Source of the DNA: Haliotis rufescens
Lineage: Eukaryota
NCBI RefSeq assembly: GCF_023055435.1
Contig: NW_025963779.1
Coordinates: 10,540,001-10,604,000, forward strand
DNA length: 64,000 nucleotides
Reading direction: 5' to 3'
The first letter of the stretch is position 1, and every line of letters starts with the position of its first letter. The notes under the pieces are model-generated. The model ran no database searches. It was not told the origin of the DNA and worked only from the letters and a program-made list of their open reading frames with translations. Position numbers and translations under genes: made by a program. Below are positions 21,511-63,532 of the stretch, one piece after another.

Positions 21511-22677
21511 GGTCAATATCAGTTTCATGGGTTAATTAAACATTGTTAAGTATACTGCCCACATGAATGGCCAATATTTGATAACGTATGGTATCAAGGT
21601 GTCGTGCATGTATCGCCCAACATGGTGGACACACCAGATATTGTTCTACACTCCCGAAATTAATTTTACAGACATTTATCGTCATAACACCTTCACTATG
21701 ATTTCATCAGTTCCCATATTTTGTGTTGGTTGTATATAAACCAACCCCATTTCTTAGTTAATTAACCCGTGAAGGGTCTTCATTAAACGATGCTTGCCAT
21801 AAAAGGCGACGTAAGAGGCGACCCACGGGATCGGATGGTCATGACGTCAATCACTGGATTGTCTGGTCCAGACTTGATTATTTACAGACCGCCGTCATAT
21901 TGCTGGAATACTTTTGAGTGCGGCTTTAAACAACAAACAAACAAAGTTAGTTCATTAATCGTACTCAGCTGTCAACCGTCTTCCTTCTACTGTAACTGTT
22001 ACATTGATTCGCGAGTTTTGTTCTTGAATTTGACTTTTTATTTCTTGTGGTGACAGGTACGAATATTACTTTCCTAGGCCTCGTTGTTTTAAATTTGGTA
22101 TTTGTGAAACTTTAAGGATTAATATCAGGGTATGACATGGATTACGTTCAGTTTAAACTGAAGGCTATTTAGATATGTAGATACAGATTCAATAGCATAA
22201 TATTCAGTCAAATAGTTTCATGCTAGCATCCCTGATGTTAGCGGTTAATCCTCAAGGTTTTAGTATTGTGTTGTACCATACTGTGAGTAACACTTACATT
22301 CAGTATTTTCTATTCGCCTATAAATTTTATTCAGAACCTACACGTAAATGCATGAATCTGGTCAGTTCTAAGAATGGCACAGTTTTCAAACCCACGTGAT
22401 TCGTGATACCAAGATACAAAATCACCCAGGATATTAATAAAATGGTGTGTGTGTGTGTCGGGGGAAGTGTGTAACGGCCAAACAAAATCTATAAAGAACT
22501 ATATGTTGATAAAGAACTATATGTTGATATGAATGTGTTTCTGCCCCGTCAAAAGAAGGCGGGCTCACAACCACAAAACTCAACCAACTCCATTGAAACG
22601 GGCACCTGCAGATCAGAGTGACCTCCCTTAGTTCCTGCAAGCGACGATTGTCTTTCAGTCTCGTTCACTTCAGGGAA

Positions 22678-40000: not shown

Positions 40001-42224
40001 GATCGATAATCAAGATCATTATTGTAATAAAATGAGTCTTATCTCGTGAAGTGCAACAAATCACTTGAGCATGTTCATTAAAAGCATGAAAAGATTTGGA
40101 AAATATCTGTCGATGCCCAGTTGGGGTTACATATGTTTTGCAAATCATGCAATTGACTTAAATCTGCACTACAGTTGCCATGTTGTTTACAAACCAGATG
40201 TTGATTTTTTCCCACAATTTATGATTGGACTATGCACCGAATTTTTGGGACAGGCAAACTAAAACTAAGAAATTCCATCCTAGTGTGGCAAGAGTTTTGT
40301 TTGTTTGCTGTTTAACGCTGCACTCAGCAATACTCCAGATATGATGGTGGTCTATAAATAATCGATTCTGGACCAGACAATCCAGTGACTGACATGGTGA
40401 GCATCGATCAGCGCAATTGTGATACGATGACATGCATCAACCAGGTCGAGAGCCTTACCACCCACTCCCATTAGTCGCCTTTCATGGCAAGCATATGGGT
40501 TGCTGAGGATCTAGTCACCCAGGATCATCATGGGTCTTGGCAAGGGTGGAAAATGGACATAGTCAGTTCTCTCCCTTGCCTCGGGAGGACGTAGGGTGCA
40601 GAGCACTTATGTTAATAGAATGGATATGATACACTGGATAAGTGAGGTTCCACACAAGCTTACTTTGACTGTTCCATCATCACTTCCTGTGCACACCAGC
40701 TGTGGACCCCTTCTTGCAGGATTACAAGAGTTGACAAACGTCTGGTGACCTTTCAACTTGCGTATACGTGTTCCTGAATCAACATCCCACACTGCACCTG
40801 TCTTGTCCGTTGATACAGTGAACAGCATTCTAGATGGACATGAAGGAGTAAATGTAAACAACTGACAGAATGGGACGACATTTGCCTCATCATTTGAAGA
40901 ACTATGTAGCTGAATGTTGTGTAAGCTGGGATTGATCTAGGTATTCCGAGGTTAATATTCCGCTACAAACTTGTAGCAAATGCCATCCAAATTCCCAAAT
41001 TGGAATCAAAACCATTCAGGTAATTATACTTATACTTAGCATAATAGCTTTGTGAAAGCAACACTGACCTGATGGCTGATGGTTAATCATAATATATCCT
41101 AATAATTGCAAGTAACAATTTCACACATTTACCCTCCATCTGTGGAAAATTCTAAATCCATCACAGCTCCTGTGTGTCCTTTCAATACTGTGAAGTTCTC
41201 ACATTCCCCATATACTGTCCAAAAATCTGGAAATAAATGAAGAAGCACAATATAAAATATTTCTTGGTCCTGATTTTGAACTGATACATGAAAGTTTAGC
41301 AATAGTGTTATGGTTATCAGGTTATACCATGTTACACTGACATGTAGTATGACAGAAAAGTCCTTGCATCAAAAGATAGCTTGTCAGATATTTTCACAGC
41401 TAACATGTTAATTTGCTAACAGTATGCTGGAGAGCCTTTACATTATGTTTGATGATGATTTTTCAATGTGAATAAATGATTTTAATGGTATTTCAAATAA
41501 AAATTTCCACAAAACAAAAACAGCAGTCTTTCAATGCTCAAATTACTCACATATGAGCCTGTCAAACCCTGATGAAGCAATTAACTGCCCATCTGGAGAG
41601 AATTTGGCTGTAAATATTTCTCCCTCATGGCCTGTAAGCAGCATGATTGGCCCATCAAGACTAGATGTCCGAGGTGGACCCTGGCCCGAATAAACAAACA
41701 GAAAACTATGTTAACATCATTAAATATGTTTCTTCCAATTTTATTGTTGAGTAGAACTAGAAACACATTTCAGCCTGCAGTTTACAACCACAGTTATTTA
41801 TCTATCATTTTTCTGAGGAAGGCAAAAATATCTTTCCCATTTCATGCCTGTGCCAGGTAAAGTGATATCGTCAGTACTGATTCACTTCAGAATTTCATGA
41901 CACAGCACTGACAACAATATGGTTATGACAAAGAATAGTTTTCTTCAATACGAAGGGTTAATATACACTTTTCACCAATCTATATCCTAATTGTTTTCTT
42001 TCTAAAAACAAAATTACATTAACAGTGCAGTATGAAAACTAAATATAACAGGAGGGGAGACAATCCGCATACAGATATGGTCGGGCCGGTTTTCACGATC
42101 AACTTACATTCTGACTCTGTAGCAAAGCACCGTTCGTGTCGCCATCTGCTAAGACGACTTCATTTCCACGTGCCCGTTTAACGGGCACCAAAGCTCCATC
42201 CATTGCCTTTCTCTTGTGGTCCAT
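34038..42224 (-). CDS. SNRNP40: U5 snRNP 40 kDa WD40 protein (349 aa, 9 exons)
   Basis: complement(join(34038..34087,34614..34779,35472..35554,36592..36712,38647..38769,40664..40829,41133..41226,41551..41680,42108..42224)) = 1050 nt. Motifs [59 protein letters not shown] and terminal [12 protein letters not shown]. Confidence 0.96.
35921..36512. repeat. 24-bp minisatellite, ~25 copies, SNRNP40 intron
   Basis: Unit AAACAAGCATGGGATACTGG(CA/GG)AT; explains the 8-aa-periodic ORFs in the track. Confidence 0.97.
36841..37150 (-). mobile_element. Helentron-associated non-autonomous element (DINE-1/HINE architecture)
   Basis: On the - strand: TTATACCCC sub-TIR with a nearby inverted copy, (GTCY)n microsatellite, 3' GGGGTATT, hairpin AGTGAGCCACGCTCACT and CTTGTT end. 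Confidence 0.75.
37148..38636. repeat. 22-bp minisatellite, ~60 copies, interrupted by a SINE at 37192-37342
   Basis: Unit TGTATCAGTAT(T/A)AACAATCATG. Confidence 0.97.
39016..39392. mobile_element. Tc1/mariner-pogo type MITE
   Basis: TIRs CCGTATTCGACATAATAAGCGCC / GGCGCTTAATACGTCGAATACGG followed by TA. Confidence 0.75.
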
Positions 42225-43040: not shown

Positions 43041-43600
43041 GTAAATTGTAAACAACAATGCGATTAAATCAACAGTTTGTTGACTGCCAACAATATAAAC
43101 ATAAATGGTCAAATTGTTAGCCACTGTGCACAAAATCTCTTGTCCCAGGTCAGGCACTGAAACCCCTTTCATCCCTGTTCTCAATGAAATACTTTTGTTC
43201 ATGATCGATGCCATTTCCTGCCAACTTATGTTTGCATAATACCCCAAGAGAATATTTAATGTATTGTGTACAAACGTGCTTACCCCGGTATGCAAGAAGG
43301 TACAACTGGACGTTTTCAGAAATACACATTTTTACCATCACCCCTAACCCCCACCATATAGGCTGTTGGTGTGTGTGTGTGTTCATCATCATCTAGATTG
43401 TATGTCCTTCAATATTTCCTCTTTCCGAGCATAACTTAAAGACTGAATGATTTTTCTTCTAATCCTTGTACATGTATTAACCATTGTCTGAAGTGACTTT
43501 TGCTATTGTGTGGTCAGGGGGATTGTGATTTTCTGATGACTCTTGTTCCATTAGTTTGGATCACTCTTGAAATGACAAGTTTCTTCTTCCAGGGTATAAG

Positions 43601-46600
43601 ATGGGTGACAGTGAGGATGAATATGATACACGAAGGAAAGGAAGAGACAAATTTCGACGGGAGAGAAATGATTATGATCGTCGAGATGATCGAAGAAGAG
43701 AGAACTGGGACCATGACAGGTGAGACTAATGATCTCACGTTTCTTCAATGGACAAATGTTTACATTGTTATGACATTCTAACTGGGGAATCTAGGAGAGA
43801 ATAATTTCCAACGAACCAGTCATATACATCAGGATGGTATAGAATATAAACATGCTTATTGATTAGGGGATGTTTGCAAAAGGGACACACTTCTAAACAG
43901 CAGCAAAGTCTTATTACAAAATCTTAGTCATGACAACATACACAAGTGTCACTAATGATCAAAGGCAGCGTTTGAAATTGACTCTAGTCCTGTTGTCCTT
44001 GATGAACTGGTGAATAGTTAAGGTATCATAAGGGCTAGTAGAAATTTGCCCTTTTTTATGGCTTTGTTATGTAATATCATAATAAGGACTAGTGACTAAA
44101 ACTGTTAGTTTCTATCGCTGATAGGTCAATCAACACGGAATCGAAGTATGTATTACAAAACTTAGTAAAGACAACACACACAGGTTTCATTGTTGATCAA
44201 AGTTTATTGTACATTTTGTTAACTCTTTTGATTAATGAAATAAAATTAGCCAACAAATGGAAACTAACACTTTTTGTTTTTTATGTTTGTACTTTTTCAT
44301 GTGGCCCTTTGAATTTGTAGTGTGACCCTTTTGACTTTTTAGTGTGGCTGTGTTGACTCGGGTCTCTCTGGCTCTTTTGACATGTGGCCTTTTTTCACTT
44401 GTGCCTGATGTTACAAGGTTGCACAGTTAGATGGAATGATTTCCTCTTGGTTGTGAGGTTTCTGCTTGTGTGTCATCATACACTGATACTTTTGTCCACT
44501 GGTTTCAAACACTTGATTATTTTAGTGATCATAATGTAATTATTAATCTCATAATTTTAGACGAGGTTCTGGTGGCCGATCACGTGATGCATGGAGCAGT
44601 AGAAGTAACCGTGACAACAGACGTGATCCATATGGGCGAGATTATGAGCCTCGTCGAAGAGAGAGGTTCAGCCCAACACGTCATGACATGAGCCCTCCCC
44701 ATGCTAAGCGTATGCGGAGAGACTGGTAAATAAACCTGTTTGTGACTACAGTTGGCTAATACTGACAGAGTAACCACTTCAGAATATGTCAGAATGTATT
44801 TTTCTCTCTCCTTACATTGTTTGAAATTAAGAACGCAAGTCAAGGGATCTTTGTCATAACTCTTATGTGAAAGTGTACAGATTGAGGGTCACTACTATAG
44901 AACCAAACCTCAAGGACCCTAGGGACCCCATTAATTGTTAACACTGTCATAGACATTGGTACTTTCTCTCAATGTGATTTTTTTAATTGGTTTAGTTAAA
45001 TCCACAATCTGCAATAAATTGAAAGTGAAAAAAAAGACCTGAAATGTACTTTTTGTTTTTGATTGAAATCTCTTTTTATGTTAGTTTCCCCAACTACCAT
45101 CCAGGATTTTTCTTAAAAAAAGTCCACAATCCAAAGAAGAAAAATCTGGCCTTAACCATGTTAACAGCTGCCTGTGATATGTCGTATTGTGATATGAAGT
45201 TGATAAATATTACCAGTATTCCAAATGTTGTATTGGGTGCATTAATCTGCACCTTGTAGAACTTTTCAAATACTTCTTCCATGTGTGACTTACAATATAT
45301 ATATGCTACTCAAAAGAAGTTAAAGAACACCCAATTTGTTCATATGACTATAGTTATTCTGTCATGGCTGGTGGTCATTGCAAAACACAGCCTTCCAATT
45401 GTGGGTGTTCTTTAACTTCTTGTGAGTAGTATATATATATACAGTGACACCCCGTCTATCCAGACATTTTTACTGTTCTCCGAATAAAGGAATCCTGGGT
45501 ACAGAGTAATGTCCCTTTATGTATTTAGCCATTCCCCTAAATAATCGACAGAAGATTATGTCAGAACTAGTTGGGTCTGGACTTATGGGTTTGTCACCAT
45601 ATAATAAGCCACTGAATAAAAAACCCAGAAAAAACCTATATGGAGTAAACATAGAAATCATCCTCCAACCTCAGAATACTAGTTTAAGGACATGTTATGT
45701 GTTGATTTATGTAATTATCTATCATCTATCCAAAAAAGAAATCTGAAATGTATTCCTTTCCTGTTTATGACCCATGTCTACATTGTCAGGGATGGAGGAG
45801 GCGGAGGTGGTGGGGGAGGGGGAGGAGGCGGAGGAGGAGGGGGTGGGGGCGGAGGCGGAGGGTATGGAAGCCACTATGACATGCCTTACGGAGGAGGGCC
45901 AATGCATGGTGGAGGGGGCCACCCACACCATGAAGGCACCTGGGGACCTGGCCCAGAAATCGCAAGCATCCAAGGTCCGCCACAGCAGCAGGGAGGCTTC
46001 GGCAATGTACCCAACCAGGGAAGGTCAGTAATAGGACAGTGTTAGAAATTGGAACTAGTCCTTGCCAAACTGCCCAATAGTTAAGGTATCATAAGGACTA
46101 GAAGAAATTTGCCATTATTGAGGGTTTTACTATAGGTTATCATCACAAGGACTAGTTTCTGTCACTGTAGGACCAATCAGAATGTTAGTTACATGTTGCA
46201 TATTGCATGACAGTTAAAAAATAATGCATAAGAGTCATGCTTTGACCTAATGGTGTGCAAGACTTGTTCGTCTTCCAGATAAATTTATCTGGATCATATT
46301 CATACTATACCTAAAAATGTCTGTATTTTCTCTGTCTCAAGTATTCACATGAAACGTCTGTAGCTATTTGCATACAAGGACCAAAACAGTACATATGCAT
46401 GAAAGTGTTATCTGCAAGGAAAGTACAGGGATAACAGGCTTGGATAAACAAAGGTTCATCTTTTGATTGGTCATTGTTGTTGTCTGTGACTTTTGTTGGT
46501 CAGAGACAAGTCACAAACGTGACAAGAATATTATCAAACATGGACTGGGGCAGTCGGGTAGCCTAGTGGTTAAAGCATTTGCTTGTCATGCGGAAGACCT

Positions 46601-49600
46601 GGGTTCGATTCCCAGCATGGGTACAATGTGTGAAGCCCATTTCTGGTGTCCCCCGCCATGATATTGCTGGAATATTGCTGTAAGCGGCATAAAACCATAT
46701 TTACTCCCACACTTACTCAAACATTGACTAGAATGTGAACGAGTTATACCACAACACATAACACAACATAAATAATATCACTCACTATTTGCTCCTGGTA
46801 TATCCTTTATTTTCAGGGGGCACGGGTGGCCCAGTTGTCTAAGGCGCCGCCATTTGCTGTGCAGATTTGCTTCCCTTGGGCACGCCAGAAACCTATGATT
46901 GTGGGTTCGAATCCCGGTTCGCCCCAATTATGTTTCTAGGTTTGTCAGCACCATACCCGTGCTCGTGGGTTTCACCGAAGTGGTAAACGTCTGAGACCTG
47001 CATCACTTGGGGCTTTCCTCCCACATTAAGCTGACACGCCGTGATATAACTGGAATAATGTTAAAAGCGGCGTTAAACCCAACTCACTCACTCACTCTTT
47101 TGTTTTCATTGATGAGTTGGAAGTTTTTGCCTGTTGCATCAAAGTTACCTTCTTGTACACAGTGTCATACAAACTTATGTTTCATTGAGGAACTTGGGAA
47201 CTTAAACTCGCAAAATTATGTAATCTGTCCATCCGAACTACAGATTAACACTTGTGACATACTTGTTTCTGGTCTAACAAAAGTATGATGCAAGGAGACA
47301 GGTTTGGACTTCATGATGACAGCATGGTTTGAAACCTTGTTGATGTTTTGGTTTGGAGCCTGTTAAAAACTTCATTGATATTTTGACGTGGGAGGATCCG
47401 GGTTAGAATTGGTCTTCAACAACCCATGCTTGTCATAAGAGGCTACTAACAAGATTGGTGATCAGGCTTGCTGACTTGGTTGATGCATGTCATCATATCC
47501 TACTTGTGTAAATCGATGCTCATGATGTCAATCTGTGGATTGTCTGGTCCAGACCCGATTATTTACAGACCACAGTCACATAGCTTGAATATTGTTGAGT
47601 GTGGCGTTTCAACAACAAACAAAGAAGAAAGTTTGATGTTTTACTGTTTGCAGAATGGATGTGGACTACCCGACCCAGCCCTCGATGATGACGTTCAAGC
47701 AGTACCTCACACAGCAAGATGATAACATTAATGACCAAGATGCTATCAAGAAATATAATGAATACAAACAGGATTTCAAGAAAATTCAGATTAATGAGTT
47801 CTTTCTTGCCCACAAAGAAGAGGAATGGTATGTAGCTTTGGGTGTCTGGTCAACCTTCGACTCGAAACTAAATATGAGTCCTTGCATTATTTTATCAATT
47901 ATATGAATAATTGAGATTGATATATTGACTGTACAAAATGCATTTTGTGGTTGGAAGAAAAGTTTCATTTGAGTAAAGGTTTTGGATGAATTTCTAGAAA
48001 AATTCCTAAATTGCTATTTCAATCTGTTATATTACATGAGACAATGATGGTGACAATCCAAGGGATATATCACACACCTGGATTATGTTATCCTATATGT
48101 AGTTGATAACTGTTGAAATCTGTCGAAGTTGTATTCATAAATGAACATTGATGCATATCGAAGCAAATGGTAATGCTATGAATTTGTTTGTGTAATCTCT
48201 TTGAAAAATCACTTAGAAGATTGTTCAATTTGTAAGAATATTGTTTATTTTATGTTTGTAAAGGGGATCAGGTTTATTGATATAAATCAGAGCATGATCA
48301 CTATTTCATATTTCATGTACATTCAAAATTTGGGTTGCTTTTATTGTCCATGTTCGCGAATTCAGTAAACCCACATATATGCTGCCTGATTCCCTTTACT
48401 TATTATATTAACTTACTTTTTCACCCCCTATAAAGGAGCTGGGTTGCTATGGTGAATAATGCAATGACCTATCACTGGCCTGCTATGAAAATGAGATAGC
48501 CAATCACAAGAACCCTTTCACCGGAGCATGGATTTAGCTTAGGGTACTGCGCACAATGCAGTCTTTAGTTGATGAAAGTGTTAGGCATAGTGTAAGGTTC
48601 GTGAAAATATGTCATCGGAAATATTGTGACCGAAATATTACATTCCCGGGAATCACCAGTGTATGGTGGTGTCTACGTTGCAAGCAGGTAATTTCTGGTA
48701 AATACGATGGCTTCTGTTGCAGGTGAATCACCAACATGTATATTTTTGTTAACACAATGTTATGCCTATACAATGATGTGTTCTATTAAGTATGAAGACT
48801 TTGCGATTGATCATCTGTAAAGGCATAATGCTTGACGTTAAGCTAATGTTCTTTTTCAGATTATGTCCATAAGTCATGTTTTGATCTATGTTGATTGACG
48901 AACAAATTTCTAAAGGAGCATTAGTTTTACAATAATTATGTTTCATTTGAACATGTGTTGAAGAGAATAATCGATTAACTTCATCTTATTGAAGACCAAA
49001 AAGTGATCCTTCAGCTAATGAATTCTTGAATAAATAGGTGTTGCTATTCGGATGAAGCACTTGGGAACCTTAGAAACTGATGTTATGTTGAAATGTATTT
49101 AATTATATGTGATTTTTTAGGAATAGCTTCAATATTACAGATTTCAATGTGTCACTAAGGATCACCATTTTGATTTTAGAAACACAGATTTTGCAATGTT
49201 CACAGTTGTCTGTAAGAGTAATTGGGTTACTTGAGGCTTTTTCTCAAAGGAAGGAATGTGAAAGGCTTAATGGACTCATGTACAGTGTTTTATTTCTGGT
49301 TTGTTTTACTTGATAGGTTCAAACTGAAATACCATCCTGAAGAATGTGAGAAGCGTCAAGATGAAGTCAGAATGGCTTTGTTGAAAAGGTTGAGGGTTTT
49401 CACTGAACTGATGCAGCAAGATCGTTTAGAAAGCATCATGCTGGACATTGATAACACAGAAGACATCATTAAAGTGCTAGATGCAGGTAAGATGGTTGTA
49501 ATGGGCTTTTACATACATTGACTAGTTATATAGACACTGACATTGACATTGACACAGGTAGACTGTTTGCATCACCAACTCATTCTCTTTCTAATTGCCA

Positions 49601-52600
49601 TGGTGTGGTGAACTCCAAGGGAATCCATTTTTTTCTCTTTATACAATTCTCCCTTTTCAGTTTTTCCAGTCTTAGCCTTCTTCCCCGTTTTTGTCATTTT
49701 GGACGGAAGTCAATGCTTCGTCCCACGTGTCTTACTTGCAGTCAGATCTTCTCTCCATCTGACCTCATGATGTTTGTTCAGACTGTTGTGGGCGCTGTAG
49801 CACATCTGTGTGCTGTGTCAGTGCATGGATTTGACCTGATGAATCCTTCAGTAATTTCCCACCATAAATGTTGGAGCAAGAGCACCCTCGACGATTGAGG
49901 ATTTCGTCAAACTCCGCGCTTCTGTTGATGACAATCTCATTAAAATTAGATCTTAGTTTTTGCTACCGCTAAACAAAGATCTGAGGATATCCCATAACGG
50001 GTCACGTCAAAACGACCATTCGCGAACTTTGACCGACCAATGAAATGACTGACAAGAAATCGACATTAGCCAATCAGAAGGCAGCTTTCTCGAGCTTTAC
50101 AACACTAGTTTCAAACTGGCGACTACGCTTCGAAACATATTTTGACATATTCTCGATTAAAAATTTTAAACTGATTATAAGAACATTCTGGAATGGCTTA
50201 TAGATGGTCAAGTTTGTATGGATATAATCATAAAAACCGTAACTATCGTTCGGAATACCCTCTGTTAAATATTTTGAGGTTGCATGATAAGAAAACACAT
50301 ACCGTCCGTCACTTTCATAATCTGGTAAGCGACGCTCTGATTGGTTGGATGAAAGGTTGTTCTGACGTGACCCGTAATGGGATGTCCGCAGATCTTTGTT
50401 TAGCGATGGGCGACTAAGATCTGATTTTAATGAGATTGCTGTTGATGACAACAGTGTATCCGGGGTTCAGCTTGTGAAGCCTCGGCATTCGGCTGATTTT
50501 TTTCTTCCAGAATTCTATCATGGAACTCAAATCAACAATCATCTAAGGTTTGATGAACTCAAGATTGGGATGGGAAATCTAGGGTTCACCGATCACGGGA
50601 TCGGCAATCTACTCAGACTCGCCATACCTCCAATGACCGGACCTCTTACTTCTAAGTTTTGGCGAACATCTTAAGATTGGAACTCCTCTTGGAAGCAGCA
50701 CACTTCCAAGGTTCGACATACCTCACAGGATAGACACACCTCTAAGTATCACCGCACCTCTAAGGCACGACATATCTCAGAGATGCGATGTAACTCTAAG
50801 GATTGACGTTCCCCCGGGGTTTGATGAACCTCCATGGATTGACCTTCTTCCACTGAGCATTATTCCAAGTATCAACGATCAGGGAAACAGTCTACCCATC
50901 ATCTCTCATGGAGATACACTTCACATATCAGTTCGGAAGATGAATTTTATACCGACTTTAATGGACACTCATCTCACTTAGCCAGTTCCTCTTGTTCTAG
51001 TCATCCTGACTCACCTTCATGATCGTTCTCGCTCTGATGATTATCATCATCAACGACCAGATGTTTACTGGAACCCTGCTTCATATGATGACACTCTTCC
51101 TTCCTTACGCCGCTCAAGTTCCCCGTCTCCTCCTCAGGTTCAATGTCCGTCTACCGTGACTGTACCAGATCCTTCAGTGACACTAGTCTTCCACACAGAT
51201 ACTTCCTAAATCATGGAATCCTAATGATTTAACCTCCATCCCGGCGCAGCAACTTCAGTAGCTTTTACAAGGTGTGACGTCAGTGTGCCTCCCTCAGTCA
51301 GGGCCTCGTTCCTCAAAGTGATCTTAGCGCTACAATAATCGTAAGCCTAAGCCTGTTAAAGTATGGGACTTATGATCACTTTAGAGCTAAGATTGCTTTG
51401 AGGAATGGGGCCCAGGTCTTCCTATGGATACAGTAACTTCCGTCATGTACTCTCTGCAGCCTACGACATGGACCGTCCCATCTACTTCTCTTGTGGATCC
51501 GTTGCCAAAGAGGGATTTAATTGATTGTCATGCCTCCCCTGCTTCTTCCTCACTGCAGATCTGTTTATGGTTTTGAGTTGAATTGCGTATAAACTCCAGC
51601 TTCCTAAAAGTACTTCAGCCGCAGACAACTATCATCTTTAGTTGTCCCCTCTGCAATTTTGCCAAATAATACACTTCCCGGTTCATGTCTCCCATCCCCG
51701 ATCCTCAGGCTTAAGATTACAACACATTAGCAATCTTATGGGAGGGCCTACACGCTTACGCCTTTCTCCCAACCAGTGTTCTACCTTGGGTCCTGCAGAA
51801 GACCATGCCACTAGTAACCTCACACTGCTTTTGTCGTTGGCCAACATGGAGTTGGTTCTCCACACTCATCCAACTCGCCCACAGAAGATTTCATCATTTA
51901 CCCCTAAGCGTCAATCTTCTTCTTCAACCTCACTCTCAGCTCTTCCACCCATTGCCCGAAACCCTCAATCTGTGCGTCAGGCACATATACAGGAATCCCT
52001 TGTTGCCATGGGTTACTGTAAAAGGGTAGCCAAGACCATTTCTGAGGCTCATCGATCAACCAAGTCACTATACGACCATTGGTGGAAGGCTTTTGAGGAA
52101 TACTGCCACATGTGTAAGATTTCTACACCCACTACTGCTTCTCCACAACAAAGTGCCGAATACGTTCTTCATCTCCGGTCATCACGTAAGCTATAGGGTT
52201 CTTCCTTAGCAACGTATCTGGCTGCGATCAATTCTGTTCCACTCACCACTTCTTTGGGCATGTGTTGTTGGGTGTGTTCGGATGATTTTTTTATAGGTGG
52301 AAGCCTTTATTTAGGCACATTCCACTTAGGATCAAAAGAGAAGTGCATAGTGTGAGATAGGATAAGTATTATGAATATACATTTTTTATTGTTATAAAAG
52401 TTACAGTTTTGTGGATAACAACTTCGGGGTTTGTTGCATAACGTGACGTTTCAGTGTAGATCCTTACACCATTATCCAGCTGAATCCAGCGGAATCCAGT
52501 GCTGAACTGTTTCATTGTGTCACAGTATCTAAAGCATTTTCTTTAAGAATTCCTGATCTGCTGGAAAGGCACCAATGTAACTGAAGTTGAACAGTGTTTT

Positions 52601-55600
52601 GATGCTGTTCTGTAACTGAAATACAATTTGTGTGATTTGCTATCATCTGAACTGGTGATAACCCAGTGGAGCACATATGATAATGTACTATGTTTGTATG
52701 CTTATGGAAAGGAGCTCTCTATGGGTGGCTCACTAAAGAGGTTGGCACAGCCTGTGATTTTGATAGAACATTAAGTGCTCATTACCTTTGCAGTTTCGAA
52801 CAAGTCCAAAGTCAGTAAAATTTGCAGGGATACATGTTAGCTTGTTGGTAACTAAATGTTGTTTTTGATGTAACAATCTCTTCTCTTCCTGGAGAACATG
52901 GAGAAGAATTATATGACAATTACTGTTGTTCTCAGCTGTCATCAAAATGGAGGGAGGATCTGATTTTGACTTGACCATTCTTGACCAGCCAGAGAAGGAG
53001 GAGGAGGTGCCTCGCAGCAGAAACAACTCCGAGTCCCATCCGGTGGAGAAAAGGTAACTCTGTCAATTGTTACTGTACTTGAATCTGAAAAAGAAATAAA
53101 GCTGGACCATTGTGATTAGCTTTAGATTATATGAATGAGATGTTAAGAGAAGCCAGGTTGTCACAGGGAAATAATGATCATGATATATTGAATATTTTCC
53201 ATATACATGAGAAGCCAAGGGGTGATAAAACTGGAAGGATGTTTCTTATGGGACTTAACAAAGTGTATTTGTTTACAGATAAATTTAGGATGGCCATACA
53301 AATTGCAAAACAAAATTAACAATCCAAAATGCAAAAGATTATGTAGAGCATATCTGAGAACCTACAAGGAATAACTGTTTGTCGGTCCTAGTTGCATTGA
53401 TTATTCATATCTTAATGCTTGGTGTAAGCCCTTGTGGATGTGTAGGTATTTCAGGTCTGTTTGTCGGTCCTAGTTGCATTGATTATTCATATCTTAATGC
53501 TTGGTGTAAGCCCTTGTGGATGTGTAGGTATTTCAGGTCTGTTTGTCGGTCCTAGTTGCATTGATTATTCATATCTTAATGCTTGGTGTAAGCCCTTGTG
53601 GATGTGTAGGTATTTCAGGTCTGTTTGTCGGTCCTAGTTGCATTGATTATTCATATCTTAATGCTTGGTGTAAGCCCTTGTGGATGTGTAGGTATTTCAG
53701 GCCTGTTTGTCATTGTAGTAGCCCTGAAGAGGAGAAGAAGAAGAAGGCACCACCTCCAGAGAAGATTGAGGAAGAAGTGAAGAAGGAGGAGTCATCAGCA
53801 GAACCTGCGAAAGAGGTGAGTATAATACAGGGGTAGTGGATGGTTGTGTCTGCGAAAGAAGTGTGTATAATAGATGGGGAGTGGATGGTTGTGTTTCCTG
53901 GTTCCTGAAGAATGGAAGGTCGGTGGTGGAGGCCCTGGCCTCGTCATACAAAATGACATTAAGAGATAGTACTTGTTGTTACCCTGCATAGTGCTTGGCA
54001 TTAAGGGGCTAAATCAAGAACTGGCCGGAGAGGGAGTCAGTGTGTGCCCTGAGTAGGGTGTCCATGTTAATTTGCAGCATGGTATCTCAGTGTGCTTGCA
54101 CTATAAAGCCTAAGTCTGGACTAGTACAAGTCACCGTTACACACATGTGCATACGCATCGCTGTATGAGTGAAATAGTTTTTAACACAATGTAAAACTGC
54201 ATTTCACCTCACCACCTTAGACTATCTGGTAAGGGTTGGTAACTCTAAGCACTCTTCAAATGCATTGTGGTGCATAGTTTTCTTGACATTCGACATGTGA
54301 AGGTTGTGGGTTAGAATTCTCATAAGAGGTGACTAACATGATCTGGTGGTCAGACTTGCTGGCTCAGTTGATGCATGTCACCATATCCTATTATGTTCAT
54401 TAAAGCTCATGATGTCAATCACTGGATTGTCCAGTCCAGACTCGATTATTTACAGACCGCTGTCATGTAGCTGGAATATTACTGAGTGAGACATTAAAAA
54501 CAAACAAGAAAATCTCGATATTCAGTGTTTTGTTGGGTCAACTTTTGTTTTAATTTGTTTTGTGTCTTTTTGTGTTGCCTCTTCATCCATAAGTTTGCAT
54601 GTGAGTAACTATTACTGATTAGGTTGAATGATTTTGTGCTTCTATGCCTTTTATGCATTTTGTAATGATTGTTTATTTAATGCTTCATTTTTGTTGATAA
54701 TAGCTGTCCCCCCCCCCCCCCCCCCCCCAACTGTTTATGTACAGACACTGTTCAGACAATTTATCTTGAAAAATCATTGTATCCAAGAGTCGGGTAGTAC
54801 CAGGATGGGTTTACAGCTAAGTGTCACAAAAGGGCCATATTGTGCACTTTGAGTTAAAAGCATGAAACTTGGTACATTAAAAGCTTTCACCATGGTAATA
54901 TATTTTGGCTCTAGGGCCAAACAAAATGGAGGCCATTTTCAAGATGGCCGCCATTATATGGCTGAATTCAGCTATTATCGAGAAGAACTGACACAATTAA
55001 TACAATGAAACCCAATTACTTCTTTGATATGAGTGAATATGTTAATAGTGCAAAACAAATGGTTAAATGGTTAATTTTAAGGTAAAAATGGCGGAGAAAG
55101 TGTCAAGCAATTATCTGAGATTGTGGAATAACCCACAATCTTTGAGTTAAAATAATGAAATCTGACACATTAACAGCTCTAAACAAGCTGAATAATTTTG
55201 GCTATAGGACCAGCAACATGTTCAATAATTTTAAAGATGGCCGCCTTGTAATGGGATGAAGAACCTGTGTACCAAATGTCATGCTTTTAACTCAAAGTGC
55301 ACAATTTAGTCAAAAAGCCGCTCCACTAACTGGGCAATAACTTTTAGACCAAGTTTAGAACATCCTTGCATCTCAATTGCATATCATCAGGTAGTCGTAA
55401 GCTTCTGTACCTCAAAATAACTTCTTGAGACACAAAGGTCGGGTCTGGCCTTTATGCTGACTGCAGCAAAGAACACTATTCATAATAGTTAACTGTAACT
55501 GTATTGGGATCCAGGGTCTTGGGAGATGACAGTTTTTTAAGCATAATTGCTTTTCAGAAACCATTGCAGATGACCATAACAGCTGAACAACGGGAGTTGC

Positions 55601-58600
55601 AGAAGAAAGCGAAGGAGTTCCAGCAACTGAAAGAAAAAGAAAAACATGATAAGGTACATGAAACTCCCGAAACTGAAGACTTTTAATTTGGCGGGAACTT
55701 TGCATCACCAAATTTAATGTGAAAAAAATAACAGGCAATAGCGATCAGCTGCACTGAAGTGCTATGCTTAGGGTTATTATTATTTTAAATATATTTAGTA
55801 AAAGCTGCAACTGAAATTACAAGATATTGGAATAATTTTTTACTTATCCTGCATTACTCCTTAATGCATTCACTGCTTACTTACGACAACTAGAAGGACA
55901 GCGCTGCGAAGGTCCTGGGTGAAGAAACAAAGTTGTTGTTCTCAAGTCCCAATCAGTGGCCTTCCGTCGCTGTCCTGTGACCTTGATGACACCTAAGGTC
56001 ATCTTCACATCACTGCTTGTCGCAGCACAGCTAGGACGTGTCCAAGCGGAGCTCTCCTTTTGGATTAATTTTAGACCTTCAGTTTGTCTACAATCTTAAA
56101 AATTGATCTGCGATGGGTGATGTATTCTTTTCATATTACTTTCACCATGTTGTGTAGTTTTATATGAATTAATTAGGCGTGAAAAGACGCTTGTCTTTTT
56201 TCCCGCCAAAATATTGTTGTTCGCCGCCATTTTGAATTGTGTTACAATCGTTTGCCTGCCAAGGTAGTCATATTGTTTACAATTCTCAGCTACGTATGTA
56301 TAACATATTCTTATGTTCTTAAATATTACTAGCTTTGGCGTAACAGTGAGTTGCGTATACTAAAATTATTGTATACTTTTTCAACTCGTTAAAAATATGG
56401 TTGCCGATAGATTAATATCAAATCTACGGCTTTCTTCCAGTCCCGCTTCATCAACAATTCTTTTATTGCGTACCTATGTTTATGCGATTAAATAGTTTTT
56501 TGTTGGTATTTTTGGTTTTACATTGACATTTACATGAACTATTGTATACTCTTGCAACTCGTAGTTTTTGCCGATAGATTATTGTTCAATTCTATGGCAT
56601 TCTTCCAGTACCGCCTCATCAACAATGGCGTAATTGTGTTTAATTTAAACATATTTTATTGACATATATGGTCAACGGGATTGGGCAAAAGTTATCCAAC
56701 TTAGGTGGCCCTTTCCCTACTCTATATGTACAGACATTGAATATACATATATATATGTAATTGTGTAACTTATGATTGAGCGTGGTATTAATTGTCGTGG
56801 GAAAAATCTTACAAAGATTATCATCCACGTTGTTTGGTTTGCGCGCAGATGTGCTCTCCAAACCCTAAATGAAAATATAAATACCCTTGGTTTACATTGG
56901 GTTGCGCATACAAAAATATTGTATATCCTTGCAACTCATAAATTTGCCGATAGATTAGTGTTCAAATTCTTCGGCACTCTTCCAGTATTATCTCATCAAC
57001 AAGGGTTTCATTGCGTAACATACCTTTGAGCATTTTACTAATTGTCGTGGAAAAAACCTTACAAGATTATCATCCACGATTGGTTGGTTTGCGCGCGGAT
57101 GTGCTCTCCAATCTCTAAATGTAAATAGCCTTGGTTTACATTGAATTGCGTATATAAAAATATTGTATACCCTTGCAATTCGTATTTTTGCCGATAGATT
57201 ACTGTTCAATTCTACGGCATTCTTCCAGTACCATTTCTTCAATGGTTTAATTGCGTAACATAATTATGTTTGCTCGGTGTACATATTGTCGTGGAATAAT
57301 CGCCCAAAGCTCTTTATCCACGGTCATAGGCATGCACGTAGATGTGCTCGCCAAAATTCAAAATGTAATTTTTATGTAAATCTCTAATCCAACGAGTTTA
57401 CTATATAAAAGCAGATTACTCACAATCATATTTTGCAGTTATTCCGTCGTGAGACGAGAGGAATGTCACTATCGCAGAATAGCGAATGACATATGGTTCT
57501 GTCATTACCACCCAACCGTTATTATCGGCAGGTATTATGACGACTGTGATTGCAGAAGTACACCATCCACCGAAATCAACAATACCGGAGGATTTTGTGA
57601 GTATCGTAACTGCTCCTATTTTTTCAGCCGCCGGACACTTCCAGATACATGTATGATAATCTGTGACGTCGGCGACAGCACCAGCGTATCGAGATGCTAT
57701 GATGGGGGTAGATTAGACACAAGCCTTGATCCAGTCAATACTTTTGAGCTTTGTGTCTGATTTATCTGCGCCGAGCGCAGCACTTGACTACAACCAAAGC
57801 ATTTCTATTACGCAATCGGCGCACGATCAGCTTAGCGCTGTTCCAACATATCCAGCATAGACCTGCGCCGAGCGCAGCGTCTGACTGATACCCAAGCGCT
57901 CCTATCACGCCAGTGACGCACGATCAGCTTAGCGCTGTTCCAACATATCCAGCATAGACCTGCGCCGAGCGCAGCGTCTGACTGATACCCAAGCGCTCCT
58001 ATCACGCCAGTGACGCACGATCAGCTTAGCGCTGTTCCAACATTCCAGACCTGCGCTGAGCGCAGCGTCTGCGTATCAATCAAGGTCTCTACAATGACGT
58101 TAGCCCAAGGCTTACAGTGTACCGGTTACGTAACCGGCACATGATCAGCTTAGCACATGTACCCGATTGGGAAGCAGACCATCTCGTGTCAGTAACGCCT
58201 TCCCCTGATAACAGGGTAAATAAGAGGGACACCACGAGGTCATTGGAGGAAGCCTTCTCCAAAACTCACATTTGCTCCGTGATTTAAGCGACCAATATCG
58301 TCAATGTTTGCAGTGGATCAGAATCTATTAGAGGATAACCCTATCTGATTAGATCACTTCCAAACTATGGTGTTTTTCCTACAGCGTCAGTTTGACCACA
58401 GGAAAATTCATCTTGAGACCGTTCTGACGGTGATTACCGTTACACCCAAGACTTTATAGCGTTTCCAACTGAGATGCTGGTTTCAAGGGCAGTCTATTAC
58501 GTCAACCTTGATCATCTACTCCCCTGTTCAACGAACAGATCGCAGACACGCACGTCAAGTTCCCAAAAAGCTTGGAAAGTCCAAGTCAGGGAATTATAAG

Positions 58601-61600
58601 CCTAGACGCGCGTTTCTCAGGGAAGACCAGCATTCCCTTACTGAGAAAGGGAGTGGCAGAGACAAGTCTCAAGGATGATTTCGTACTTATCGCACTATAT
58701 CATGGTGTCCGTATAAGGGTAGAGTTAACCCCACCGTTGACCACAGTTTGATTGGGAAAATCCAACATAGACATACTGTTGGTAAGAAGAGCTGTAGAGT
58801 GGGTTCACAACCCAGTCTTTACTCCGGGGTTTTATCCTCACACCTACCTGGTACTCATGAAGGACCCAGACAAGATGAGAATGATCCACAATCTCTGTGT
58901 TCAACGAACGTTTGATTCTTCATCAGTCTCGACTATCCATCCCAACCGTAGACTTTTCAGGTCCAGTTCATTGGGGTTCACTACCAATGGTAGTATTTCC
59001 CATTTGACATGTCAGTGACACTTATGGCTATTTACAGGAGTAATGAAGCCAATAACTATCTACACGTGACGAACACTTGGTTCGAGTCGTAGATGGAGGG
59101 CGATCTACTGTATCATCAACACATGTCAATAACTGGGATAGACAATCAACGAGGCGAAGTCGGGAGTATTCTCCTTCCTTTTGACTTCAGTTCATAGGAG
59201 ACCTGTTTAAGACAGACCAGGATATCCTATCTGTACCGAGGGACAGATGGCACAAGTTTCTACTTCTTTTGTCATCTACTCTACACCAACCACACACACT
59301 TCGCCAGTGGCAAGTGTTGCTAGGGTTAATCACCTCGGCACAGGAGTTAACTAGCATGGGCCGCTTACAACAGCAACCAATTCAATTTTTTTCCTGAACC
59401 CTTACATCAGGAGTCAGGATCCACTCAAGGCCATCACTCTACCAACTAAGCTAGAGCCTCAATTTGTGGCGCTGAATGTCTGCGGAGTCTGTTTATTCGG
59501 ATTTTCCCCGAATACACACCTGTTTGTGGACGTCCCTTTTCAGGGGTGGAGTCTTCACTTACAAGACCAGATAAGCTCAGGGCTATGGCCCGGCGCACAA
59601 TGGAAGTGGCACATAAACAACTTGGAGTTGGAAGCTTTAATTCTGGCTATATCACATTGGCAGAATCAACTACAGTTAGCCCGACTCGCTATATCCACAG
59701 ACAACAGCACTGCGGTGTGGTGCCTGTGCAATCGGGGAACAACACACTCCCACTCTCCACTTCTAAGGACATTCAGATTTCTTCCATCTAGTGGATCGGC
59801 TGTGACTAAGGTTCATAGTTCAGCACATCCCCGGATGTAGAAACATACTGGCCGATACTTTATCACGTCCAGACAGGGTGGCTCCCACTGAGTGGAAATT
59901 TCTCACAGAAGCATTCCAGTTACTGCTTCAGGAATTCAGGCAACCAAACATTGACTTGTTTATTACTTGCCTAGGCCACCAACTCATGACGTATATCTCC
60001 CCGTTGCCGGATCCGCAGACTTGGGCGGTGGACGAGTTCAGTATCACTTGGGAAGGGCAAAGAACTAAAACTCTTCTGCCACCACTTTTACTTCCAAGGT
60101 GCTACAGGGGATCAAGGAGACAAGGTATCTCGATCTCTCCTTTGGTCGCACCATGGTAACCGGCGAGAGGGTAGTTCGTCAAGCTCGGAAAAATCTAAAA
60201 CGATTCACTTCCCCTCTCACAGTGGTCCAACCTACTCATCCACCCTCAACAGAAAATTGCCTCACCCAACGTCTGCACGCATGGTTCGTCTTTAAAAGGC
60301 GTTTAAGTGCGAAGGGTTATTTCGACACGGGCAGCAAAGCTATAGCTTTAGTTCATCGTTACTCTCCCAGAGACGACGATGACAAGTGGGGATCACTTGA
60401 GACTTTTTACAGGGAAGAAAAGAATCAAGACCCTACGATTGCGTCACAATTCCTAGAGGAATACCTCCTACATTGCGTACCCAAAAACACTTGGAAGGTA
60501 GCACCATTACTACGTAATTGGCTGCAATTATCTTAGTGTTGGCCGTTTCCGGAAAATCACAGTGTGATTAAGGTCACGGAACTACAGGCCATATTATGCT
60601 CATTCAGGTTTGAGGATCAGAAGGCCAAGTTCCAGCCACCTGATTGGGACTTGAACGTGGTACTTCGAGGTTTGCGAGGGCCCCCTTCGAGCCCCTCATT
60701 GCATCCTCATTTTCAAGCTCCTTCCCAGCGCGTGACACCTTCGTTACACTCTCGGTATAGTATAGAGAGCTCCGCGAACGGGCTATCGCTGTGAGGAGCT
60801 TGGACCTCACCAAGGAAACAATGGTTTTCTCTTGGCATTAGCAATGGCGGTACGGGTGAGCGAACTACATGTGGTCGACTCAACCCGGATCCGTTTTGAG
60901 CATGGGACGCACGGAACAGGACATCTAGGGTTATGCTGGGATTTTATTGCTAAAATCTACTACCAGGCCAACCCGACCGTTCTTCACCATCCCACCGATA
61001 TCGACTATTGTGGGAATCGTACATGGTGAAGTTCTCCTGGGCTCGGTGCGAGCAGTTCGAGTTTTCATTCGACGCTCCAAGACAAGGCGTGGTTCGTCCA
61101 CGACAGAAGTTAGTCGCATAATCGCAAACACCATATCTATATGGTTACGCGCAGTAATCCTTCAGGCCTACGAGATCATCAAACGGAACTCGCCGAGAGC
61201 GAATTACCCTCAAGATCTCAAGGTGTCAGCCTTACCAGGGCTCAACACGGCAATTGTGGTTTTGGAACAATCACGGAAGGATATTTCTGGAGATTCGACA
61301 CATATTTTCGTTAGTCATAACCTTCGCGTTGTGACTCTCGAGGATGTCAAAGACGTTCGAAGTTTGGCCCTCTGGTTGTTATCCTGCAGATTGCCAACCA
61401 CTGACGCAAATAATGAACTCGCCCTATACAGAGCCAGTCAACTTCCATGTGCAGTCACTCAGTCGCCACCAGTGGAAGAATATTAGACAATCTTGTTTGT
61501 CAGCGACGGCTCTATGACGCAGTAAGTAAAGAATTAGCTGAATAGCTATTATTTTCTTTATTACTAAGCGTGTATAGGGAATTTCTCTTTAATTCCTATG

Positions 61601-63070
61601 TTCAATGTTTTTGATTTTTGAACAACCCTACCGTAATGGCGTTTTTGTCTGAACTTTTCCGCTTCACGGTTTATCGACCAATGGGGTCGTATTGCAGGGT
61701 GTGAATTATTGAGGTTTCTGTATTCTGAAGGTTGACCCACCTCCAAACCGTCCGATACAGATGCATTAAGGAGTAATGCAGGATAAGTAAAAAATTTAGT
61801 AAAATCTAAATATTTTTTACATTTGTATACTTATCCTGCATTACTACGCTTAAGGCCCACCCGTCGTTAGACTTGCCTCCCCACTTTGGCTTCAGAAACC
61901 TCAAAAGTATGTTTTTCTAAGAGCTTGGGCGACAGGCAGTGATGTGAAGATGACCTTAGGTGTCATCAAGGTCACAGGACAGCGACGGAAGGCCACTGAT
62001 TGGGACTTGAGAACAACAACTTTGTTTCTTCACCCAGGACCTTCGCAGCGCTGTCCTTCTAGTTGTCGTAAGTAAGCAGTGAATGCATTAAGGAGTAATG
62101 CAGGATAAGTATACAAATGTAAAAAATATTTAGATTTTACTAATATTATTCATGATAAAGAAATAGTTTTCAGATACAATTTTTCCTTCAAAATCCTTTA
62201 TAGTTATTTCATTGGGTAAGATGTAACCAAATCACTGGTAGATTCCAAGAAAACATGTGTACAGCTGATTGATGTTTCCGGCTTAGTTTACGAGAAAATA
62301 CACAAGGTAATCTTAATCCCTGGATGTAAAACGATGCCCAGCAGAACAAACAATACAATTTAAACAGTAAATCAACATGTCTGGTGATTTTTATTTCAAA
62401 TTTTAAATTTGTACTAACCAAGTTTCTTTGACTCATATGGATTTTGTACAAATTTGGTGGCATATATTGTTTGGGACACCATAGGATTCCATTTGATTCT
62501 TATGATGCTGACTTGAAACTAAAAATAACTGAGTGTTTTCAGTATGGGACTTGTTCTTATATAACAAGTAGAAGAGAGTAGCACTACAGATGAAATATGA
62601 TTAACCCTCACAAGATATTTGACCCGATTATTTCTTGCTTTGTCAGTACTATATTCTAGCTTGTGGGTTTCAACAAAGTAGTAACTGTCAAAGACCTGCA
62701 TCACTTCTGGCTTTGCTCCCACTTCAAACTGACACACCATGGTATAACTGAAGTAGTATGCGTTCACTCTCTCACTCTCTACATGAAAAGTAACATAGAA
62801 ATATCTACTATATTAACATAACTTCCATCATCGCCAATTACTCACTTCAGGAACTAAAGAAGGCTGGCAAGAAGCACCATAGAGACAAGAGTGATTATAA
62901 TTATGAAAGCGGTTCCTCAAGTGGGTCAATAAGCTCGTCTGAATCAGAATCGGATGACAATGAGCCTCTGCCCCCAGGGGTGGATAATGATGGGGAGCCC
63001 CTCCCTGCTGGGGAAACGGACATCTACAGTCTGGATGAGGACAAACAAGAGAAGAAGGTCAAGGAAGATG
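43601..63070 (+). CDS. SRRT: Serrate RNA effector / ARS2, 5' partial (continues beyond window)
   Basis: join(43601..43719,44561..44725,45790..46023,47654..47827,49317..49486,52936..53053,53722..53815,55558..55653,62851..63070,...), phases consistent. Motifs [47 protein letters not shown]...[17 protein letters not shown] and [16 protein letters not shown]. The last three low-complexity exons are less certain. Confidence 0.93.
45307..45432. mobile_element. Tc1-derived MITE in a TA run
   Basis: CTACTCAAAAGAAGTTAAAGAACACCC ... GGGTGTTCTTTAACTTCTTGTGAGTAG; same TIR as the 20581 element; TA-repeat flanks. Confidence 0.8.
46547..46716 (+). mobile_element. tRNA-derived SINE family A
   Basis: A box and B box (GGTTCGATTCC); TSD TCAAACAT(G/T)GACT. 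Confidence 0.88.
46816..47097 (+). mobile_element. tRNA-derived SINE family C (others ~7590-7745 -, 17850-18100, 18290-18512, 28488-28660, 32700-32930, 62620-62780)
   Basis: A box GGTGGCCCAGTTGTCTAAGGCG, B box GGTTCGAATCC, shared body CTAGGTTTGTCAGCAC...GACCTGCATCACTT, (ACTC)n tail. Confidence 0.85.
47385..47622 (+). mobile_element. High-copy SINE-like family B (others ~4030-4295 -, 5460-5702, 20820-21028, 21770-21945, 23140-23330, 29265-29480 -, 34153-34372 -, 40295-40535 -, 54320-54505)
   Basis: Shared core GCTCATGATGTCAATCACTGGATTGTCTGGTCCAGAC..GATTATTTACAGACC and (CAAA)n tail in at least 10 copies. Confidence 0.85.
49932..50438. mobile_element. ~510-bp MITE, copy 2, with 10-bp TSD
   Basis: TIRs CAATCTCATTAAAAT.../...ATTTTAATGAGATTG flanked by CTGTTGATGA at 49922-49931 and 50439-50448. 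Confidence 0.9.
50450..52250 (+). mobile_element. Second, older truncated DIRS-like relic (boundaries approximate)
   Basis: ORF 51642..52196 C-terminus ([36 protein letters not shown]...EYVLHL) aligns by eye with the YR N-terminal region in ORF 60099 ([19 protein letters not shown]...DDKW...EYLLH). Confidence 0.65.
53375..53711. repeat. 82-bp tandem repeat, 4 near-identical copies plus a partial
   Basis: CTGTTTGTC starts at 53375, 53457, 53539, 53621 and 53703. Confidence 0.97.
54838..55306. mobile_element. Inverted-repeat non-autonomous DNA element
   Basis: ATTGTGCACTTTGAGTTAAAAGCATGA..TTGGTAC and its reverse complement at ~55269-55305; internal repeated AAGATGGCCGCC. Confidence 0.7.
55841..56023 (+). 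repeat. DIRS left inverted terminal repeat
   Basis: Reverse complement of 61929-62111 with one mismatch near the inner end. Confidence 0.95.
57766..58070 (+). repeat. 97-bp GC-rich tandem repeat (~3 copies) inside DIRS
   Basis: CTGCGC(C/T)GAGCGCAGC recurs at 57766, 57863, 57960 and 58051. Confidence 0.9.
58752..61486 (+). pseudogene. Frameshifted RT/RNase H/MT and tyrosine recombinase ORFs of the DIRS element
   Basis: Domains are split over ORF fragments 58752, 59466, 59878, 60099, 60564, 60832 and 60947 by stops and frame changes. Confidence 0.85.
61761..61845. repeat. DIRS internal complementary region (ICR)
   Basis: First half is complementary to the element's left end; second half is complementary to the right end and its extension (TACAAATGTAAAAAATATTTAGATTTTACTAA). 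Confidence 0.9.
61929..62111 (-). repeat. DIRS right inverted terminal repeat
   Basis: Reverse complement of 55841-56023, followed by a 3' extension to 62143. Confidence 0.95.
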
Positions 63071-63532
63071 GTGAGTTGGATGTTGCTGGATAAATAGTGT
63101 TGGTATTCTTTCTGTTGGCTCGGTGGTTAAGTGTTTTAACTCATACTGAAGAACTGTGTTCGATTTCCACACTGGAAGAAGTTGTCTTGATGTCCCTGAT
63201 GTGATAGTCCTGGATTATTGCTATGAGTAGCATTAAGCCCTATTTACTCATATGTCTTTGAGTATTTCCAGGACAGGGTAGAAGTTGTCAGTGTATGTAT
63301 ATGTTCAGATGAAGGGGAATCTGGGGATTTTATTCTTTTTAAATGATTCTCGTTGTGAGTGTAAAAATCTGCTATACTGAATTTTAAAGATTTTTTAGAC
63401 TTTATATGGCAGTCAGGGAGTTTAGTTGCTTGTCTGATGCCCAAATCTGGTATAATCCTGTTCGGCTGGTAAGCTCAGCTAATAACAGTCCATATTATGA
63501 CACTAAAATCAACTGAATATGATCCTTAGAGC

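Follow-up and report, generated by a model that had tools for sequence, protein, structure and literature searches.

How can a retrotransposon whose genes have been destroyed still carry almost perfect replication signals? The question is raised by a DIRS element in a 64,000-nucleotide stretch of the Haliotis rufescens genome (assembly GCF_023055435.1, contig NW_025963779.1, positions 10,540,001 to 10,604,000 of the forward strand; hereafter the window, with positions counted from its first letter). An earlier note on this DNA had proposed that the copy inserted recently, long after losing its coding capacity, and was mobilised in trans. Analysis of the element and its relatives in the 1.33-Gb genome indicates that it is very probably a young copy of a full-size, dead DIRS1-type family (family N), likely moved by the proteins of an intact sister family (family H).

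Structure and coding decay of the element

The A at 55834, previously taken as the start of the element, is a base of the flank, and the element begins with the ATT at 55835 (Table 1). Of the 183 positions in the arms of the inverted terminal repeats (ITRs; 55841-56023 and 61929-62111), 182 are identical, as had been stated, and the sole mismatch is at 56017. The internal complementary region (ICR) also fits both termini as described: as reverse complements, 61761-61796 fits the left end without a mismatch (36/36) and 61796-61845 the right end (50/50). The window element is without a target-site duplication. It has inverted repeats, a two-part ICR near the 3' end and a right extension, and the left end starts with an A followed by a T-run in 65 of 71 N copies. 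The order gag, reverse transcriptase (RT)-ribonuclease H (RNase H)-methyltransferase (MT), tyrosine recombinase (YR) is seen as remnants in the window copy and as open reading frames (ORFs) in an intact H copy, L061. By structure, the window element belongs to the DIRS1-like ITR/ICR superfamily. Membership of the PAT or Ngaro groups was rejected, since the element has inverted termini and an ICR where those groups have split direct repeats.

The four enzyme-coding regions (RT, RNase H, MT and YR) are indeed broken. Alignment of the RT-to-YR region with L061 gave 49 indels, 40 of them frameshifting, although both counts depend on the alignment. Of 19 in-frame stops, 6 interrupt pol and 13 the frame that carries YR, and the longest stop-free sense frame of the element has 185 amino acids (aa). 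The first catalytic Asp of RT is deleted and a stop lies within the YxDD motif; three of the five catalytic positions checked in YR are altered, including the Tyr. The acidic residues of RNase H are retained. The window copy thus lacks the open ORFs with catalytic residues that mark an autonomous element. The earlier statement that gag has no ORF holds, but gag remnants do exist at ~57260-58690 (tblastn E 2e-23), as fragments that have in part given way to tandem duplications. A Pfam search with 11 frames of the dead element returned one weak RNase H match only, and the comparison was therefore made against an intact relative.

Copies of family N and their shared lesions

A DNA search found at least 22 near-full-length places with 98-100% identity (22 of 3,912 candidates scored). 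A 56-nt sequence across the ICR junction has 84 exact matches in the genome, compared with 0 for the control, and a 40-mer from the left end has 121. In total, 102 records were examined, and the alignment was built from 86 full elements, 73 of family N and 13 of family H; the 16 records excluded from it comprise 7 of a second intact family and 9 without the ICR or one end. Four of the 86 elements were left out of the tree, and four of the 73 N copies out of the table of ITR variants. The N copies are 94.7-100% identical to the window copy and the H copies ~76%. About eight more N copies, beyond the 73, were found truncated or interrupted.

The disabling lesions recur in these near-identical copies, as the earlier note had anticipated. 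Among 43 lesion junctions, 37 recur in 63 or more of the 73 N copies, and the other six are rarer (11-44 of 73). The longest sense frame of any N copy does not exceed 337 aa, with a median of 208 aa. A nested 89-bp element is carried by 72 of the 73 N copies and by none of the 13 H copies. Judged from the sequences of the copies, the genes were dead before family N spread. Sequencing error, raised before as a possible source of the frameshifts, does not account for them: the frameshifts are common to dozens of copies, and the window sequence is matched across the lesions by contigs from four public runs, each of a different study, one of these runs (X1) possibly being the source of the assembly. 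In the same contigs the element is covered far more deeply than its unique flanks; such depths are not copy numbers and were used only as a sign of multiple copies. In the four runs the nested 89-bp element is covered at very high depth and has loose ends at either side, suggesting a separate high-copy family that rides on family N.

The copies occupy many unrelated sites, so the window copy is not unique. Only two pairs of similar flanks were found among the 86 elements, both on the left side only, while the positive control of this test, L160-L163, was flagged as one locally duplicated insertion. The lengths of flank duplications match the shuffled control, by which a target-site duplication was rejected. 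At the window site, the best 15 of 303 contig rows across the public runs are mostly repeats. Two of the records, L076 and L079, have ICR matches in a rearranged setting (a pair of ICR cores separated by 85 bp; ends facing opposite ways within one stretch) and are possibly elements inserted into or beside one another.

The pairwise divergence within family N has a median of 1.8% and a maximum of 5.5%. The window copy itself differs by ~0.17% from its nearest copy, has five private events relative to its 11 closest sisters, and lies in the youngest clade of a ladder-shaped tree with a terminal length of zero (2,789 columns). There are 39 copies among the 73, the window copy counted, within 1% of it. 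The proposed recent insertion is therefore supported by the ~0.17% divergence and the five private events. However, the ITR identity on which it had been based gives no date: the mismatch at 56017 is inherited, being present in 66 of the 69 N copies scored, and the ITR identity was discarded as an age clock.

An intact sister family as the likely helper

Family H comprises 13 copies, three of which (L061, L063 and L064) have all ORFs open as three overlapping frames of ~661, 761 and 998 aa; the third ORF of L062 falls short of this by 27 aa. Pfam identified RVT_1 and RT_RNaseH in these ORFs, together with a weak Phage_integrase match below the curated cut-off. MT has no Pfam match and was recognised by DLFA/PP motifs only. 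In the genome search, the closest open-frame RNase H was that of family H (69% aa identity), followed by the next intact group at 57-59%. The elements with this RNase H also contain the ICR junction without a mismatch.

The intact relative with the same ICR and termini that the earlier note had called for thus exists. Families N and H diverge by ~24% overall, whereas no difference separates them in the ICR (100/100), at the left terminus (44/44) or at the right terminus (72/72). The runs of identity cover the outer left 44 nt, the last 72 nt and 102 consecutive nucleotides at the ICR (61747..61848). The spacer between the ICR and the ITR is identical at 75 of 82 positions and the 5' untranslated region (UTR) at ~82% (56030-56330), while the ITR middle is only ~56% identical (44% divergent). 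Both families prefer the same targets, with A at -9 (57/71 N and 11/13 H) and T at +3 (54/71 N and 8/12 H), and both contain young copies, a nearest neighbour closer than 0.3% being found for 23 of 73 N and 6 of 13 H copies. The identical ICR and termini, the common target preference and the equally young copies make family H a likely helper. Family N very probably spreads non-autonomously, in trans, and family H is probably its main helper. With lesions that precede the spread and an intact sister carrying the same cis signals in the same genome, the proposed mobilisation in trans long after the loss of the genes is supported.

A second intact family (L134-L140, here H2) has long open frames, and its young copies differ by 0.4-1.8%. 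Its right-terminal 50 nt equal those of H and N, and its pol is just 65% identical to that of H.

Continued replication during neutral drift

The extent of neutral drift was estimated from second codon positions, with H2 as outgroup. On the N branch these positions changed by 12.7% in YR and 13.4% in pol, compared with 1.6% and 2.5% on the H branch. The difference between ~13% and ~2% indicates that N drifted neutrally for ~11-12%. Under 11% drift, the probability that the 100-base ICR would stay unchanged is ~9e-6.

Four older insertions of the N lineage (L153, L160-163, L164 and L165), located at separate sites, preserve earlier stages. They share early deletions with N, including a 174-bp and a ~40-bp one ahead of RT, and the 26-bp RT deletion is also present in L161-165. 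All four are without the later deletions and without the nested 89-bp element. The tree path from the common node of these fossils and N to the window copy is ~0.12 substitutions per site, matching the codon estimate. The N lineage thus appears to have replicated on through ~12% drift after the death of its RT. Separately, L160-L163 (G000:C445 9.54-9.73 Mb) represent one old N-lineage insertion that was duplicated four times with its flanks.

Replication and integration

The proposed cycle would begin with an RNA that starts in the inner left ITR and serves as template for the helper RT. The left ITR would be rebuilt from the right ITR, outward from a boundary at ~55995-56016, and the outermost ends would be restored on the ICR. 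The helper recombinase would then open the joined ends between ACTAA and ATT and integrate the element into an AT-rich target with A at -9, W-W before the cut and D-W-T-T after it. The lineage would have lost its RT early and been parasitic since, retaining only the cis signals. Rebuilding of the left ITR from the right one and restoration of the extreme ends on the ICR follow the published model (PMC7192593, PMC3266345). In Dictyostelium, the experiments reported found the ICR essential and suggested RT action in trans, and the circular double-stranded intermediate is described there as a model that was not directly detected (PMC7192593). The transcription, cDNA and circle of family N are what we infer from its sequence.

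Variation between copies bears on two of these steps. The ITR variant table contains 16 variants present in both arms of one copy, reaching inward to 55994; three are clade-specific, including the change at 55928/62024 that is private to the window copy. Such variants argue that the ends are rebuilt during replication, and their inward limit together with the inherited mismatch at 56017 places the rebuilding boundary at ~55995-56016. Two insertions into tandem repeats show that the sequence from ATT to ACTAA was inserted with no target base gained or lost, as expected for a recombinase crossover at a 3-nt core.

Alternative explanations

Several points weigh against a family moved by H through this cycle. 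The present-day activity of family N is something that we infer. L112 has a both-arm variant at 56022, inside the proposed boundary, and gene conversion is in principle another source of both-arm variants. One element in 84 has a 12-nt flank duplication. Most copies were gathered by an exact ICR pattern, which inflates the ICR identity within the sample, and full retrotransposition in trans was not observable in the truncated-element assay described for Dictyostelium (PMC7192593). The ends of L135-L140 match those of N at 93-94 of 100 ICR positions and 66-67 of 72 right-end positions; ends are thus conserved across families, and the identity of N to H is no proof that H is the sole helper. It is accordingly conceivable, though unlikely, that H2 or any of several families with common ends provides the proteins to a non-autonomous N. 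The long open frames, near-identical ends, similar flanks and young copies of H2 agree with such a source, and helper switching has been described for wheat Angela elements (PMC9744471). However, N equals H exactly at the ICR and termini while differing from H2 at 6-7 of 100 ICR and 6 of 44 left-end sites, its ICR-ITR spacer matches H at 75 of 82 positions compared with 48-54 of 82 for H2, and its descent from the H lineage also speaks against H2.

Alternatively, an old copy could have decayed in place and been revived once by fresh H ends, acquired by recombination or template switching. The ICR block and an adjoining 48-nt run resemble H far more closely than the remainder of N does, and a long branch precedes the young N burst, both of which such a rescue would produce. 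However, the ITR middle is N-specific (56% to H) yet equal in both arms, which is unexpected after a fresh capture. The older insertions at separate sites have intermediate lesion sets and their own ICRs, and their ITR middles are 80-89% identical to N and 58-61% to H, arguing against one late rescue by captured helper ends. Revival is largely refuted by this fossil ladder and appears very improbable. The idea that the copies are products of segmental duplication or gene conversion, or that the breaks are assembly errors, deserves hardly any weight: L160-L163 provide one case of local duplication, but the flanks are otherwise unique, the element ends are exact, and the lesions are common to many contigs and matched by the public runs. 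Segmental duplication and sequencing error were both rejected on these grounds. Spread in trans with H as the main helper is thus the preferred reading.

Element length

Relative to its putative helper, N has lost ~1,045 bp and gained ~1,029 bp, so that its final length is only 16 bp from that of the helper. The gained sequence consists of tandem duplications and the nested element. The youngest N wave has an extra 126-bp segment that is absent from older copies and raises the length from ~6.18 to 6.31 kb. Deletions of at least 250 bp number 14 among 75 copies, and all are private. No amplified miniature derivatives were found among 29 further left-end loci (from the 100 of 121 matches listed), and the short copies among these loci carry private deletions. 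As a tentative and rather doubtful suggestion, DIRS1-type replication may have a size window, so that a parasite may lose all its genes but not its length. Such a window would explain why DIRS1 parasites are full-size rather than shrinking as in terminal-repeat retrotransposons in miniature (TRIMs) or miniature inverted-repeat transposable elements (MITEs), and would suggest that a step of packaging or circularisation senses length. However, private deletions are expected anyway from a ladder-shaped tree, and the Angela parasites of wheat are also full-size.

Comparison with known systems

Non-autonomous retroelements are well known in general, and the evidence on copies, helper and fossils well supports family N as an unusually complete example of the principle, with a likely helper and fossils of staged decay. 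The DIRS1-like elements described by Piednoel et al. (2011, PMC3266345) resemble N in their ITRs, two-part ICR, right extension, ATT start, variable end trinucleotide, absence of a target-site duplication and length of ~6 kb, and resemble the sister family H in the order gag / RT-RH-MT / YR with overlapping ORFs. Unlike those elements, family N has all its genes ruined, is young, and outnumbers its intact sister ~5:1 in the sample. The word 'autonomous' is absent from the main text of that paper. DIRS-1 of Dictyostelium, as presented by Malicki et al. (2020, PMC7192593), is like N in having its ends rebuilt via the ICR, with RT action in trans suggested; that work left it undecided whether other DIRS proteins act in trans over the full cycle, which family N would imply.

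Family N differs from TOC1 of Chlamydomonas in that dead genes can still be recognised in its interior and its likely helper is a sister lineage. TOC1 has split direct repeats and not ITR/ICR ends. It is described as a non-autonomous DIRS retrotransposon with copy-number variation, like N (PMC9940879). The wheat Copia element RLC_Angela (PMC9744471) is reported to have partner-sized parasites with degenerate coding regions (frameshifts and stops) and a long co-evolution, also like N. However, Angela is a long terminal repeat (LTR)/integrase system in which the whole LTR tracks the partner (PMC9744471), whereas in N the parts that do so are limited to the terminal 44-72 nt, the ICR and the spacer, and the ITR middle drifts freely. 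No non-autonomous DIRS family appears in the main-text passages of PMC8498967 and PMC9210276, whose supplements could list some. We found no ITR/ICR-type non-autonomous family with a helper in the literature covered, outside which lie most subscription journals and Repbase, so that such an absence is unproven.

DIRS elements are poorly understood, and family N beside its intact sister gives an indirect answer to the question of action in trans. It may be read as a natural footprint of the cis requirements, namely the outer 44 and 72 nt, the 102-nt ICR block and the spacer, but not the ITR middle. It also maps the rebuilding of the left ITR, the opening point of the joined ends and the target preference, and offers a ready pair of helper and parasite. 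For annotation, it indicates that ITR identity is unusable for dating DIRS copies.

The host gene and other features of the window

The element lies in an intron of the host gene Ars2 (window 43500-63100). Upstream exons match Pfam SERRATE_Ars2_N above the curated cut-off. The two exons that flank the element are without a Pfam match and presumably belong to the same gene, judged by their position, their phase and their likeness to Ars2. The element is in the sense orientation, as had been noted, and the exon next upstream ends 181 bp before it. No RNA data set was listed as containing the flank, which counts neither for nor against expression.

Table 1. Positions of the element, its parts and the flanking host exons in the window
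Feature	Position	Strand	Remarks
Upstream host exon (3' part), SRRT/Ars2	55558..55653	+	GT donor at 55654
Full-length DIRS1-like element, family N	55835..62143	+	6,309 bp, coding-dead; start ATT, end ACTAA
Left terminus and left ITR	55835..56023	+	
5' UTR	56024..56414	+	
Degenerate tandem duplications	56320..57370	+	Units of ~170-250 bp, from the 5' UTR/gag start region
gag remnant	57260..58693	+	Large deletions and a gag-derived 97-bp tandem array (57766-58071)
RT / RNase H / MT remnant	58668..60300	+	
YR remnant	60300..61410	+	Frameshifted
Nested 89-bp element	60714..60802	.	Terminal inverted repeats; within the YR remnant
ICR block	61747..61848	+	Complementary to both termini; junction near 61794-61796
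Right ITR and right extension	61929..62143	+	
Next host exon	62851..63073	+	AG acceptor; phase equal to the upstream exon

Ars2 is reported to be essential in mammals (PMC7293269), and its Drosophila orthologue is reported to silence germline transposable elements (PMC12123415). That the element lies in a gene with such a reported role is probably a coincidence. The private ITR change of the window copy at 55928, mirrored at 62024, destroys an AATAAA (55926-55931) that is found there in 69 of the 73 N copies and is their only common sense-strand AATAAA. The destroyed motif would fall ~270 nt past the Ars2 splice donor. This loss, a single post hoc observation, would possibly be explained by selection for an insertion that spares the Ars2 transcript an early end, and may be the reason that a sense insertion is tolerated here. 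The absence of sense-strand AATAAA from the window copy is not significant alone (shuffle P ~0.05).

Other repeats are located near the element. An earlier Ars2 intron contains a remnant of another DIRS element (MT/YR region, ~51640-52240) that is nearer to H2 than to N. A tandem array with an 82-bp unit and near-identical central copies lies at 53293-53784, and a small element at 54839-55305 contains internal repeats and a pair of inverted arms of 38 bp that are 95% complementary. The intron to the right of the element (62200-62930) contains high-copy repeats as judged by contig depth. Elsewhere in the window, Pfam identified the exons of a WD40 gene at 34585-41368 on the minus strand, which we take to be SNRNP40-like. 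From their translations, the exons at 9143-11203 (minus strand) presumably belong to an Emi1/FBXO5-like gene and those at 22597-26997 (plus strand) to a TPR-like gene.

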